A stretch of 63,934 nt of DNA, counting the filler, from Octopus bimaculoides (lineage: Eukaryota), in NCBI RefSeq assembly GCF_001194135.2. It is 5 parts of 4 records of this genome, joined end to end, with 100 filler letters (N's around TTAATTAATTAA, not from the genome) between each part and the next. Parts side by side here need not be neighbours in the genome. Positions count along the whole stretch, not along the records: positions 20,691 to 38,146 come from NC_069003.1; positions 38,247 to 59,029 come from NC_068981.1; positions 59,130 to 61,694 come from NW_026314933.1; 2 more parts are not named here. The stretch is one strand, 5' to 3'. The position numbers and the translations under genes are program-made. Below, one piece after another: positions 23,561 to 60,289 of this stretch (positions are counted from its first letter, which is position 1; each line of letters opens with the position of its first letter). The notes below the pieces were generated by a model. It saw only the letters and a list, made by a program, of their open reading frames with translations, searched no databases and had not been told where the DNA came from.

Positions 23561-23704
23561 GGGAGAATTTACGAAAAAAACAACAGACGAGGACAGGCGG
23601 TGTAAACAACAAAAGGATGTATTAGTTTAATGCTCGGGAATTGAGAAAGTCTTTAACGTTTCGAGCTACGCTCTTCAACAGAAAGAATAAGGAGAAAAAC
23701 AAGG
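23561..23704 (-). mobile_element. 144-bp PLE-terminus-like element flanked by (TA)n on both sides
   Basis: Near-identical to 50785-50950 and to the reverse of 59490-59571; carries the hammerhead fold. Confidence 0.8.
23650..23686 (-). ncRNA. Minimal type I hammerhead ribozyme-like motif, A6U core variant
   Basis: UCUUU CUGUUGA A GAG CGUAG CUC GAAA CGU U AAAGA: stem I UCUUU/AAAGA, stem II GAG/CUC, palindromic ACGU in place of helix III. Confidence 0.7.
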
Positions 23705-24008
23705 ATATATATATATATATATATATNNNNNNNNNNNNNNNNNNNNNNNNNNNNNNNNNNNNNNNNNNNNNNNNNNNNNNNNNNNNNNNNNNNNNNNNNN
23801 NNNNNNNNNNNNNNNNNNNNNNNNNNNNNNNNNNNNNNNNNNNNNNNNNNNNNNNNNNNNNNNNNNNNNNNNNNNNNNNNNNNNNNNNNNNNNNNNNNNN
23901 NNNNNNNNNNNNNNNNNNNNNNNNNNGGGAAGCAAAATTTATTAGTCCCTACCTGCTCCGCATTCTCTAACAAAAATAAATTAATTAATAAAGAATTCAC
24001 AGGTATTT

Positions 24009-24465
24009 AGGCGTGAGGTAAGAAGCTTGCTTTCCAATAGTTTGGTTCCGGGTTCAGCCCTACTATGTGGTACCTTGGACAAGTGTCTTCTACTATAGCC
24101 TCAAACCGACCAAAACCTTGTAAGTGGATTTAGTAGACGGAAACTGAAAGAAGCCTGTCGTGTGTGTGTGACGATGTGTGTGTGACGGTGTGTGTGTGAC
24201 GGTGTGTGCTTGTGTATGTGTGAGACGGTGTGTGTGTGTGTGTTTATCTCTCCCACCGTTTGACAACCGGTCTTGGTTTGTTTACATTCCCGTAACATAA
24301 CGATTCGGCAAAAGACCCCGATAGAATATGTACAAGCTTAAAAAAAAAATATTAAGTACTGAGGTCGATTCATCCGACCAAAAGTTCTTCAAGGCGCCGC
24401 TCCAGCATGGCCGCAGTCAAATGCCTGAGACAAGTAAGAGAATAAAAGATAAAAGAAAAAAGATA
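24009..24465 (+). mobile_element. SINE family A, full length with internal (GT)n/GTGACG repeat
   Basis: Head with B-box-like gggttcagccc; gaagcctgtcgt; internal repeat 24160-24243; body cccaccgtttgacaaccgg...ttcggcaaaagacc; tail ccagcatggccgcagtcaaatgcctgagacaagtaagagaataaaaga. Confidence 0.85.
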
Positions 24466-24698
24466 AGGTCACTCACATACACGCACCACACACAAACACA
24501 CACACACACGGACGGACGCTCTCACCGACACACATACATACGNNNNNNNNNNNNNNNNNNNNNNNNNNNNNNNNNNNNNNNNNNNNNNNNNNNNNNNNNN
24601 NNNNNNNNNNNNNNNNNNNNNNNNNNNNNNNNNNNNNNNNNNATATATACATATATATATATACATATATATGTATGTATGTATGCATGTATCAATAT

Positions 24699-24900
24699 AG
24701 GAGTGGCTATGTCGTCAGAAGCTTGCTTCCCAACCACATGGTTCTGGGTTCAATCCCACTGCCTGGTACCTTGAGCAGGTATCTTCTAGCCTTGGGTCAA
24801 TCAAAGCCTTGTGAGTTAATTTGGTAGACGGAAACTGAAAGAAGCCAGTCGTATATATATATATATATAGATAGATATAGATATAGATATATATATATAT
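24699..24900 (+). mobile_element. SINE family A head plus (TA)n running into a gap
   Basis: aggagtggctatgtcgtcagaagcttgc...gggttcaatcccact...gaaagaagccagtcgtatata. Confidence 0.85.
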
Positions 24901-25689
24901 NNNNNNNNNNNNNNNNNNNNNNNNNNNNNNNNNNNNNNNNNNNNNNNNNNNNNNNNNNNNNNNNNNNNNNNNNNNNNNNNNNNNNNNNNNNNNNNNNNNN
25001 NNNNNNNNNNNNNNNNNNNNNNNNNNNNNNNNNNNNNNNNNNNNNNNNNNNNNNNNNNNNNNNNNNNNNNNNNNNNNNNNNNNNNNNNNNNNNNNNNNNN
25101 NNNNNNNNNNNNNNNNNNNNNNNNNNNNNNNNNNNNNNNNNNNNNNNNNNNNNNNNNNNNNNNNNNNNNNNNNNNNNNNNNNNNNNNNNNNNNNNNNNNN
25201 NNNNNNNNNNNNNNNNNNNNNNNNNNNNNNNNNNNNNNNNNNNNNNNNNNNNNNNNNNNNNNNNNNNNNNNNNNNNNNNNNNNNNNNNNNNNNNNNNNNN
25301 NNNNNNNNNNNNNNNNNNNNNNNNNNNNNNNNNNNNNNNNNNNNNNNNNNNNNNNNNNNNNNNNNNNNNNNNNNNNNNNNNNNNNNNNNNNNNNNNNNNN
25401 NNNNNNNNNNNNNNNNNNNNNNNNNNNNNNNNNNNNNNNNNNNNNNNNNNNNNNNNNNNNNNNNNNNNNNNNNNNNNNNNNNNNNNNNNNNNNNNNNNNN
25501 NNNNNNNNNNNNNNNNNNNNNNNNNNNNNNNNNNNNNNNNNNNNNNNNNNNNNNNNNNNNNNNNNNNNNNNNNNNNNNNNNNNNNNNNNNNNNNNNNNNN
25601 NNNNNNNNNNNNNNNNNNNNNNNNNNNNNNNNNNNNNNNNNNNNNNNNNNNNNNNNNNNNNNNNNNNNNNNNNNNNNNNNNNNNNNNNN

Positions 25690-26360
25690 ATGCACGCACA
25701 CAAAGTACATATACACACAAAGTACATAACACACAAAGTACATACACACACAAAGTACATACACACACAAAGTACACACACACACACAAAGTACATACAC
25801 ACACAAAGTACATACACACACAGAAAGTACATACACACATATACACAATCTACATACACACACACAAAGTAGATGCACGCACACAAAGTACATATACACA
25901 CAAAGTACATAACACACAAAGTACATACACACACAAAGTACATACACACACACACACAAAGTACATACACACGCACAAAGTACATACACACGCACAAAGT
26001 ACATACACACATATACACAAACTACATACACACACACAAAGTAGATGCACGCACACAAAGTACATATACACACAAAGTACATAACACACAAAGTACACAC
26101 ACACACAAAGTACATACACACACACAAAGTACATACACACACACAAAGTACACACACACAAAGTACACACACACATATACACAAACTACATACACACACA
26201 CACACAAAGTACAAATGGAAGTTACCTTTTCGTTGTATATATACACACAAAGTACATACACACACAAAGTACATACACATACACAAAGTACGTACACACA
26301 CACAAACTACATACACACACACACACAAAGTACAGATGGAAGTTACCTTTACGTTGTATA
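25690..26360 (+). repeat. Complex minisatellite of (CA)n interrupted by AAGTA, with higher-order periodicity
   Basis: Basic unit acacaaagtacat(ac)n; the block atgcacgcacacaaagtacatatacacacaaagtacataa recurs at 25690, 25873 and 26045. Confidence 0.9.
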
Positions 26361-58480: not shown

Positions 58481-59029
58481 TCTTAATGACAATATGTCAA
58501 AATAAATTCAGTAAACTAAGAGAATTCATTGGTTCTTAAGTCGACAGCTGTTTCAAGAAGCACGAAATTATATGTTATTCCCAAAATTGGATCCATGATG
58601 ATGTTGGTGTTGATGATTAACAAATATTGCAAATAATTATTTCCTTAATTTTAGAAGGTTTGCGGTAATATGTGTCTCAAATTTGTCTGAACGTACACAC
58701 TTTCAGCGTACTTTTTTGTTGTTTCTTCCTTGAGAAGAGATTTAGGAAGATAATAATTGCTCTTTGTATATATTAGTTGTGATCTTTCATGGTGGACTTT
58801 TTGATATAAGAAATCTAGTTATCTCAATAGGTATTAGACGGACGGGTATGAAATAAATACAGAAAAGGAATTATATGACATTACACTATGGTAAGCAGAC
58901 TGTTTACTCGCGATGTATTCTTATGCACATACATACATACCTACATACACACACACACACACACACACACACACACACACATATATATATATATATATAT
59001 ATATATATATATATATATATATATATATA

Positions 59030-59129
59030 NNNNNNNNNNNNNNNNNNNNNNNNNNNNNNNNNNNNNNNNNNNNTTAATTAATTAANNNNNNNNNNNNNNN
59101 NNNNNNNNNNNNNNNNNNNNNNNNNNNNN
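59030..59129. other. Artificial 100-bp assembly spacer N44-TTAATTAATTAA-N44
   Basis: Same structure as 20591-20690. Confidence 0.95.
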
Positions 59130-59186
59130 GTAGGCAGACGAAAGAAAGGCATTCAACACATTTATTGGGAGTTACATGGTTAGATA

Positions 59187-59324
59187 AAAACAGTTTGATT
59201 CAGACTCCTTAGTTTTCTGGGTTTCAAGCGTGTGGCTAATCTTTGGCCATCGGGGCCATGGTGGACGAGGCCTAGCCACACACTTCGGACTCAGATTACC
59301 AAGGGGTCTGAATCAAACTGTTTT
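59187..59324. mobile_element. 138-bp fold-back hairpin / mini-MITE
   Basis: AAAACAGTTTGATTCAGACTCCTT vs AAGGGGTCTGAATCAAACTGTTTT (23/24 complementary), plus an inner stem tctgggtttcaagcgtgtggcta / tagccacacacttcggactcaga. Confidence 0.8.
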
Positions 59325-59498
59325 GGTATTTACACAACACATAGCATCCATCACACAGCACCCATCACCGATCACATGGCAGCTTCCATACATCACATAG
59401 CATCCATATATCCATCCATATATATTTATTTCCATATTGGCATTTGCCATGATTGACCGCTAAACCTTTTTTATTTTCTCTATGCTTATTTATCTGTT

Positions 59499-59536
59499 CG
59501 TTTCTGTCGAAGATCGTAGGCTCGGAACGTAAAAGA
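59499..59536 (+). ncRNA. Degenerate hammerhead-like motif (family of 23650)
   Basis: CGUUU CUGUCGA A GAU CGUAGG CUC GGAA CGU A AAAGA, followed by the shared ctttctcacttccccgagcgttaaactaatacatc. Confidence 0.55.
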
Positions 59537-60289
59537 CTTTCTCACTTCCCCGAGCGTTAAACTAATACATCNNNNNNNNNNNNNNNNNNNNNNNNNNNNN
59601 NNNNNNNNNNNNNNNNNNNNNNNNNNNNNNNNNNNNNNNNNNNNNNNNNNNNNNNNNNNNNNNNNNNNNNNNNNNNNNNNNNNNNNNNNNNNNNNNNNNN
59701 NNNNNNNNNNNNNNNNNNNNNNNNNNNNNNNNNNNNNNNNNNNNNNNNNNNNNNNNNNNNNNNNNNNNNNNNNNNNNNNNNNNNNNNNNNNNNNNNNNNN
59801 NNNNNNNNNNNNNNNNNNNNNNNNNNNNNNNNNNNNNNNNNNNNNNNNNNNNNNNNNNNNNNNNNNATACATATATATATATATACATATATATATATAT
59901 ACATATATATATATATATATATATAGGGACGATAGTGTTAAGAAAAATTGGCTGCGTGTTGTTGTCATGGACCAAACGATGTCTGTTGAGCGATTACCGC
60001 ATCCGACCACAATGTATTTCTTACAAGAAATACCGAAACTATCCTTCGGATAATAAAGAACTAGAAATATAAGTATGTGGAGATGGAAAACGAGAAACAC
60101 AAACAGTCTTCATACCCTAAGAAGGACTATTAAAAGAGGTAGAGAAATACATAATCAAAATATATAACTATACAGACCCTTTATGCATATTATATTGAAT
60201 GCCTTTAAAGAGAGGAATGGACTCTACAAGAAGTGCTTTTGACAGTATCCTTCACTTTCGAATCCTAGAAACACAAACAAGATAACACG

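Follow-up and report, generated by a model that had tools for sequence, protein, structure and literature searches.

Five hammerhead ribozyme motifs lie dispersed in a 63,934-nucleotide stretch of Octopus bimaculoides DNA, here called the window, which is microsatellite-rich animal DNA with 33 gaps (10,345 N) and 148 tandem-repeat rows. We consider it probable that these motifs are minimal type I hammerheads at the 3' ends of 5'-truncated Penelope-like elements (PLEs), stubs left in (TA)n by target-primed reverse transcription. They form two lineages, families A/B, likely of the Neptune clade of PLEs, and family C, likely of the Hydra clade, both assigned on motifs and layout rather than by a tree.

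Two lineages of hammerhead motifs

A sequence-only reading of the window had named at least five hammerhead folds from three sequence families. All five motifs are present (Table 1), though only A1 and C keep the whole fold, with both stems, the GAAA strand and the palindrome. The A1 motif has a 5-bp stem I, the core CUGUUGA with U at position 6, one extra A, a stem II of GAGC/GCUC with a 3-nt loop, GAAA, the palindrome ACGU and a U at position N17 of the cut site. Family C has a 3-bp stem I, the 8-nt core CAUGACGA with an extra A after C3, a 4-bp stem II closed by an A-U pair, GAAA, a loopless 8-nt palindromic stem III and a GUC cut site, and its unit stops 3 nt past the predicted cut at a TA-rich tract. 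None of the five motifs has a fully canonical core (CUGANGA, GAAA and UH), A1 and C each being one change off. The layout of A1 recurs in A2, where stem II is broken by two changes, at 50901 and 50903; A3 likewise has U at position 6, with one stem II mismatch and GGAA replacing GAAA; B keeps A6 and an intact stem II, carries U4C and has a broken palindrome. Judged by homology, A2, A3 and B are decayed relatives. Stem I spans 3-5 bp across the motifs, and the ACGU palindrome is common to A1-A3.

Table 1. Hammerhead units and PLE enzyme fragments in the window (positions along the whole stretch; clade names are assignments from motifs and layout)
Feature	Position	Strand	Hammerhead	Remarks
Family A copy A1	23561-23705 (about 145 bp)	-	23650-23686	Predicted cut between 23655 and 23654
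Family A copy A2	50785-50941	-	50880-50916	Predicted cut 50885/50884
Family A copy A3	59470-59571	+	59500-59536	3' side cut by gap
Copy B, distant family A relative	35573-35745	-	35636-35672	3' side cut by gap
Family C unit, A-rich	51505-51742 (about 240 bp)	+	51703-51742	Predicted cut 51739/51740
Hydra-clade PLE reverse transcriptase fragment	3-335	-		Cut by window edge
Broken Hydra-clade PLE reverse transcriptase and linker	38392-39731	+		3' part lost in gap 39895-40775
Hydra-clade GIY-YIG endonuclease fragment	11644-12093	-		
Weak Hydra-clade endonuclease C-terminus remnant	15277-15459	+		E 2.6e-4; absent from the sequence-only reading
Neptune-like PLE fragment (reverse transcriptase thumb, Cys linker, GIY-YIG)	43974-44802	-		Protein matches 44010-44802

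The three A copies are 82-89% identical in pairwise comparison. Since B aligns with A1 in a pairwise search (E 7e-5), with a common stem II and downstream motif, the three proposed families reduce to two lineages, A/B and C, which are unrelated to each other. A1 and A2 end at the identical 3' base and the 5' extents vary among the three A copies and among sequencing reads; family C entered this comparison with a single copy. Folded in silico, the C dimer pairs as expected through its palindrome (duplex -10.7 kcal/mol), and the minimum free energy structure of the A1 dimer does not use the palindrome alone. For minimal type I hammerheads of PLE termini, cleavage as dimers was reportedly described by Lunse et al. 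in 2017.

A short CGAGC motif recurs in each of the four A/B copies, 25-29 nt beyond stem II (23622-23626, 50853-50857, 59550-59554 and 35611-35615). Between A1 and B it is 6/7 identical, compared with 6/12 in the spacer, and it is absent from the metagenome locus L001 described below. Pairing of the motif with G12 and the 3' strand of stem II has a predicted probability of 0.05-0.61. A role of this alternative helix as a switch is not supported: it looked dominant in short folds, but has that same range of probability in whole units and shows no covariation.

Comparisons with published systems, here and below, cover parts of each source cited. The minimal hammerheads of metazoan PLEs number in the thousands in a genome; most are single and have been described as "probably related to truncated PLEs". 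They are marked by an extra nucleotide after A9, the pair G10.1-C11.1, a palindrome at 15.2-16.2 and a short stem I (PMC4209133). All four features are matched in the A/B lineage; the G10.1-C11.1 pair and the extra nucleotide accompany an intact stem II in A1 and B and a stem II with one mismatch in A3. The layout of family A is that of the Acropora digitifera Neptune motif in the supplement to the same paper, and its stem II has nearly the same sequence. Also shared with PLE hammerheads are the ACGU palindrome in place of helix III, a U-rich 5' flank and dispersal as single copies. Unlike them, family A has U at position 6, and neither core spelling occurs in supplementary file 2 of that paper; its published motifs do include core variants, for example U3-A8, and the compared parts of its alignment contain no cephalopod row. 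The earlier identification of the motifs as PLE-type minimal type I hammerheads is supported.

For family C, the closest comparison is with the Hydra-clade PLEs of Craig et al. 2021 (PMC8557442), which target (TA)n and carry hammerheads. Rows of this clade in their File S2 share with C a 4-bp stem II, an extra nucleotide before GAA and a stem III of ACUC-GAGU type. Similarly, C lies at (TA)n with its hammerhead near the 3' end, and remnants of Hydra-clade reverse transcriptase and endonuclease occur in the window. In contrast to the hammerheads of that clade, the first core strand of C is 8 nt long, the 8-nt palindrome is loopless and the unit ends 3 nt past the cut. It also differs, in a comparison by eye, from Hydra-1_Obim, an O. 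bimaculoides element whose hammerhead lies some 100 nt short of the 3' end (PMC8557442), in both motif and 3' sequence.

A motif near-identical to the Acropora one, with the exact stem II of family A, was found in two metagenome loci, L001 and L003, where two ends face each other head to head, an inverted arrangement typical of PLE insertions. These two, which share the same coral-like motif, were among four loci recovered by the metagenome scan; the other two were set aside as chance matches in GC-rich sequence. In L001 (3347-4044, with the same DNA in L003), the inverted PLE-type ends each bear a minimal hammerhead and lie in animal-like DNA; a supposed endonuclease remnant at this locus was not confirmed by profile search or protein atlas search. 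Viral contigs gave no matches for three patterns or for the Neptune alignment, and two exact pattern matches in prokaryote genomes were taken as chance.

A (TA)4+ tract lies no more than 3 nt from either end of A1 and from the 3' end of C; as a background, 4.6% of random positions have such a tract within 5 nt. The earlier statement that most motifs are in or beside (TA)n holds for these three ends and not for the remaining 7 of 10 unit ends, which fail the strict (TA)4+ test. Both of the fully sequenced 3' ends, those of A1 and C, adjoin (TA)n. On their 3' side A2, A3 and B each run into an assembly gap edged by TA, as 20 of the 33 gaps are. With (TA)n on both sides, A1 sits inside the (TA)n tail of a SINE-like (short interspersed element-like) repeat, and this position therefore suggests insertion into a pre-existing tract.

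Abundance, variants and transcripts

Two sets of DNA contigs and two runs of raw RNA reads from the same organism, the RNA sampled at about 6%, were mapped to 50779-51750 at 80% likeness, where the depth of the unique flank was 42 and 53. Summed depth reached about 26,000-31,000 times the unique flank at the A2 hammerhead and 20,000-24,000 times near the C hammerhead, in agreement with the very high copy number proposed earlier. Read as an order of magnitude rather than a copy number, these depths place families A and C each near 10^4 copies. The SINE-like repeat between A2 and C has a summed depth of about 170,000 times the unique flank.

At the two sites where stem II of A2 is broken, the pairing base makes up 99% of mapped depth (reads and contigs). 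At the cut site of family A, C replaces U in 28-31% of the DNA depth and in 70-75% of the RNA reads. This U/C difference at N17, a tolerated site, is the sole family polymorphism inside the A hammerhead among the 40 of 144 variant rows listed, each of which reaches about 48% or more in some run and direction. No listed variant falls at 50904-50911 or 51700-51745, and the complete indel table has none there either; thus the majority state is apparently U6 for family A and the 8-nt core for family C, with minorities of up to about half possible.

Family A also continues upstream. In the two runs, 1019 and 1138 RNA reads extend past 50941 into one consensus (agreement 0.81-0.82), and 54-58 DNA contigs extend into the same sequence. 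This 30-letter consensus ends in L-N-T codons in the hammerhead sense, a suggestive resemblance to the P-x-L-N motif found in 97 of the 150 related endonuclease proteins listed, in most of them at the end. The extension has no above-chance match in the window, and its motif was not found in the supplement of Craig et al. 2021 (PMC8557442), where line breaks can hide matches. At family C, depth rises about 130-fold at position 51505, and the alignments of several contigs break off at 51504-51509.

Neither RNA run shows a pile-up of starts or ends anywhere, including the predicted cuts at 50885 and 51739, and RNA depth is level across the predicted cut of family A and equal in both directions. 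Additionally, no unit-length tandem or circle joint, from unit end to unit start, was present in DNA or RNA among 15 of 18 joints listed, and the window contains no tandem hammerhead units. For the proposed search for RNA ends at the predicted sites and for circular RNAs, this is a weak test: the RNA-seq is fragmented, apparently unstranded and of a library type unsuited to small circles, and short-read contigs can hide tandem arrays. Relative to DNA contigs, the RNA is enriched for one form of family A, with C at 50885, a 3-nt deletion at 50925 and the extension at 50941; this form may stem from a subfamily that is expressed, from a small number of host transcripts or from the mapping itself.

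Origin of the units and state of their ribozymes

It is very improbable that the folds are chance look-alikes within ordinary repeats, and this explanation is already largely refuted. A tailored descriptor that required both stems, GAAA and the palindrome and allowed at most one core change matched the window twice, exactly at A1 and C; on 150 local dinucleotide shuffles it gave one match in a single shuffle and two in none, an expectation of 0.007 per window. Chance is favoured by the fact that this descriptor was written after the motifs had been seen, by a looser descriptor that gave nine matches (A1 alone of the five motifs, and eight unrelated), by folding z-scores of nine fragments that were ordinary (-1.17 to +1.05), as expected for such small motifs, and by an Rfam scan with no hammerhead family, and with microsatellite-driven miRNA matches, among the 150 of 364 matches listed. 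Against it stand the two matches over the number expected, the restored stem II of A2 in the reads, and a layout nearly identical to published PLE hammerheads of two separate clades. A covariance model built from A1, A2, A3, B and L001 found no further copy in the window; its next match, 32497-32574 (E 0.014), was rejected as the core is absent.

If the units are truncated PLE ends, the GIY-YIG endonuclease of an autonomous PLE would nick (TA)n, to judge from published PLE behaviour, and the PLE reverse transcriptase would start at the RNA 3' end and usually stop after 150-250 nt, leaving a stub with a hammerhead and a short tail. The hammerhead of an intact element would act only in its tandem precursor RNA, in which pairing of two copies through the palindrome could form helix III; stubs standing alone in the genome are predicted to be inert and passively transcribed. 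The shared 3' end, varied 5' extent and upstream read extension of family A, together with the lack of a unit joint, fit such truncated ends, and since lone stubs are predicted to stay uncut in host transcripts, RNA without an end pile-up fits as well. In published work, monomers of minimal PLE hammerheads did not cleave and dimers cleaved at a low level (PMC4209133). Several results weigh against this explanation. The window has no hammerhead connected to a PLE open reading frame, the sequences upstream of A2, A3, B and C match neither endonuclease profile, and protein searches with two frames upstream of C gave no match. Across the five sequences stem II never covaries, and the two stem I pairs that change on both sides are equalled in 61 of 500 shuffles. 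Furthermore, each of the two cores is altered at a position where changes make other hammerheads less active.

The sequence-only reading had taken the units for solo or non-autonomous, retrozyme-like elements mobilised by octopus PLEs into (TA)n. Their dispersal as single copies stands, and a separate non-autonomous, retrozyme-like system is unsupported, given that A extends upstream and varies in 5' extent and that no unit joint was seen among those listed. Animal non-LTR retrozymes are defined as tandem units (Cervera and de la Pena 2020, PMC7229834; Li et al. 2026, 10.64898/2026.07.22.740005). The present units resemble them as short non-coding sequences of 150-250 nt with a type I hammerhead, kinship to PLE terminal repeats and dispersed monomers, and differ from them in that no tandem array, canonical loop-loop hammerhead or circle joint was seen and family A extends into a longer element. 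Retrozyme status is unsupported for these units, though less settled for C. We regard it as distinctly unlikely that either family or both, C being the most plausible case, consist of non-autonomous PLE derivatives that have fixed ends of their own and are copied in trans by PLE enzymes in a retrozyme- or SINE-like manner. The sharp depth edge at 51505, with contigs stopping there, argues for such a unit, as do the lack of a protein match upstream of C and an end closer to the cut than in the Hydra elements compared (Craig et al. 2021, PMC8557442); C could thereby be a non-autonomous unit ending at its own predicted cut site. Precedents exist in non-autonomous Chlamys elements (PMC8557442) and in animal retrozymes derived from PLE terminal repeats (Li et al. 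2026, bioRxiv 10.64898/2026.07.22.740005). However, the 5' edge is equally expected if only this copy was truncated there, no unit-length head-to-tail joint was found among the joints listed, published animal retrozymes are tandem arrays with canonical hammerheads (PMC7229834; 10.64898/2026.07.22.740005), and family A continues upstream in most RNA reads.

A further alternative concerns activity rather than origin. The hammerheads may descend from PLE ends and yet have been dead when the families expanded, the fold being a relic and cleavage not needed; this is quite possible, if short of an even chance, and is compatible with truncated PLE ends as to origin. U6 in all three A copies and the 8-nt core in C, apparently the majority states, favour it. 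In another hammerhead A6C slowed cleavage about 10^5-fold at 0.3 mM Mg2+, and insertions near C3 impaired cleavage elsewhere (PMC3088659; PMC7151607). The two RNA runs, with no pile-ups and level depth across the A cut, are also in line with it, and Naiads reach very high copy number with no hammerheads at all (PMC8557442). On the other hand, continued selection is suggested by the three A copies, which vary at the tolerant positions N7, loop II length and N17 and have U6, the stems, G8, G12 and the palindrome in common; lone minimal hammerheads are in any case not expected to cut (PMC4209133), and fragmented, apparently unstranded RNA-seq is a poor test.

The variants at position 6 in A and beside C3 in C recall natural core variants, A6C in phage Bcep176 and the 2a/2b insertions near C3 (Perreault et al. 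2011, PMC3088659; PMC7151607). The published examples are individual ribozymes, microbial or from phage, and have full stems, whereas the octopus motifs have U at position 6, are of minimal dimer type and occur in about 10^4 copies. If the variant cores cut as dimers, they perhaps have altered metal needs, as shown for A6C. As core variants, U6 and the extra A after C3 are possibly new: neither core nor family was found in the parts of the literature searched or in two PLE supplements, and Lunse et al. 2017, which covers very many variants, may contain them. We offer as a tentative and somewhat unlikely proposition that two unrelated PLE-end families, each of about 10^4 copies with a changed core, represent either unreported dimer-cutting cores or a spread after cleavage was lost.

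Thousands of lone minimal hammerheads from truncated PLEs were already known in 2014, and an octopus Hydra element with a 3' hammerhead and (TA)n targeting in 2021. The function of PLE hammerheads has been called unclear (PMC8557442). High-copy families with a fixed core defect would be a natural experiment on that function, and either outcome, cutting by the variant cores or spread after its loss, would directly test whether PLEs need their ribozyme. Both families would escape a strict CUGANGA search, so hammerhead counts in such genomes may run low by tens of thousands.

PLE enzyme fragments and other repeats

The reverse transcriptase and GIY-YIG fragments reported earlier were confirmed (Table 1), and all PLE enzyme fragments in the window are broken. 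As no fragment is joined to a hammerhead, the description of the enzymes as lying nearby reflects PLE density only; the closest approach is 2.7 kb in window coordinates, on the opposite strand. The two reverse transcriptase fragments are 69% identical over 310 nt (28-335 of the first). Among relatives of the Hydra-type fragments longer than 600 aa (23 of 60 matches), RWK/RWR occurs in 19 of 23, DK[TS] in 21 and CxCx3-6C in 22, and the RWK, DKT and CxCx5C-type linker in these relatives are the basis on which four fragments were assigned to the Hydra clade. A Nematis-like label for the reverse transcriptase and endonuclease fragments was dropped, as the clade motifs given by Craig et al. (PMC8557442) indicate the Hydra clade.

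Relatives longer than 600 aa of the fifth fragment (19 among the 150 listed) all have a C-terminal GIY-YIG with a Cx2-5CxxC linker, and 16 of 19 have DKG. This fragment appears Neptune-like, on a linker and DKG that do not separate Neptune from Nematis. It ends in (TA)n about 25 nt after its stop; no hammerhead lies between that stop and the (TA)n end or downstream of 11644-12093, and a protein search with the short frame 44028-44336 gave no match. For O. vulgaris, Bonar 2026 describes 31 recently active PLE families.

Several other repeat families share the window. The SINE-like family, with microsatellite tails, has seven copies (8987-9109, 23435-23531, 24014-24161, 24663-24873, 28558-28754, 37963-38117 and 51138-51313), and a second dispersed family has five that are 73-78% identical (1744-1849, 5079-5284, 9756-9917, 14831-15035 and 45101-45300). 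A tandem repeat of 157-185 bp at 21116-21683 has a dispersed inverted copy at 7242-7369, and no hammerhead was found in either. A non-PLE reverse transcriptase fragment resembling long interspersed elements lies at 32891-33211 (Pfam RVT_1, E 4e-5). Mariner-type remnants at 10268-11001 and 49517-50383 are 78% identical and have terminal inverted repeats, and another at 58112-58384 matches Pfam Transposase_1. Hairpin or inverted-repeat elements occupy 34471-34818, 59187-59324, 32485-32792 and 36878-37298; two of these adjoin the gap at B and A3, and the last encloses (CCCTAA)15 at 36990-37078.

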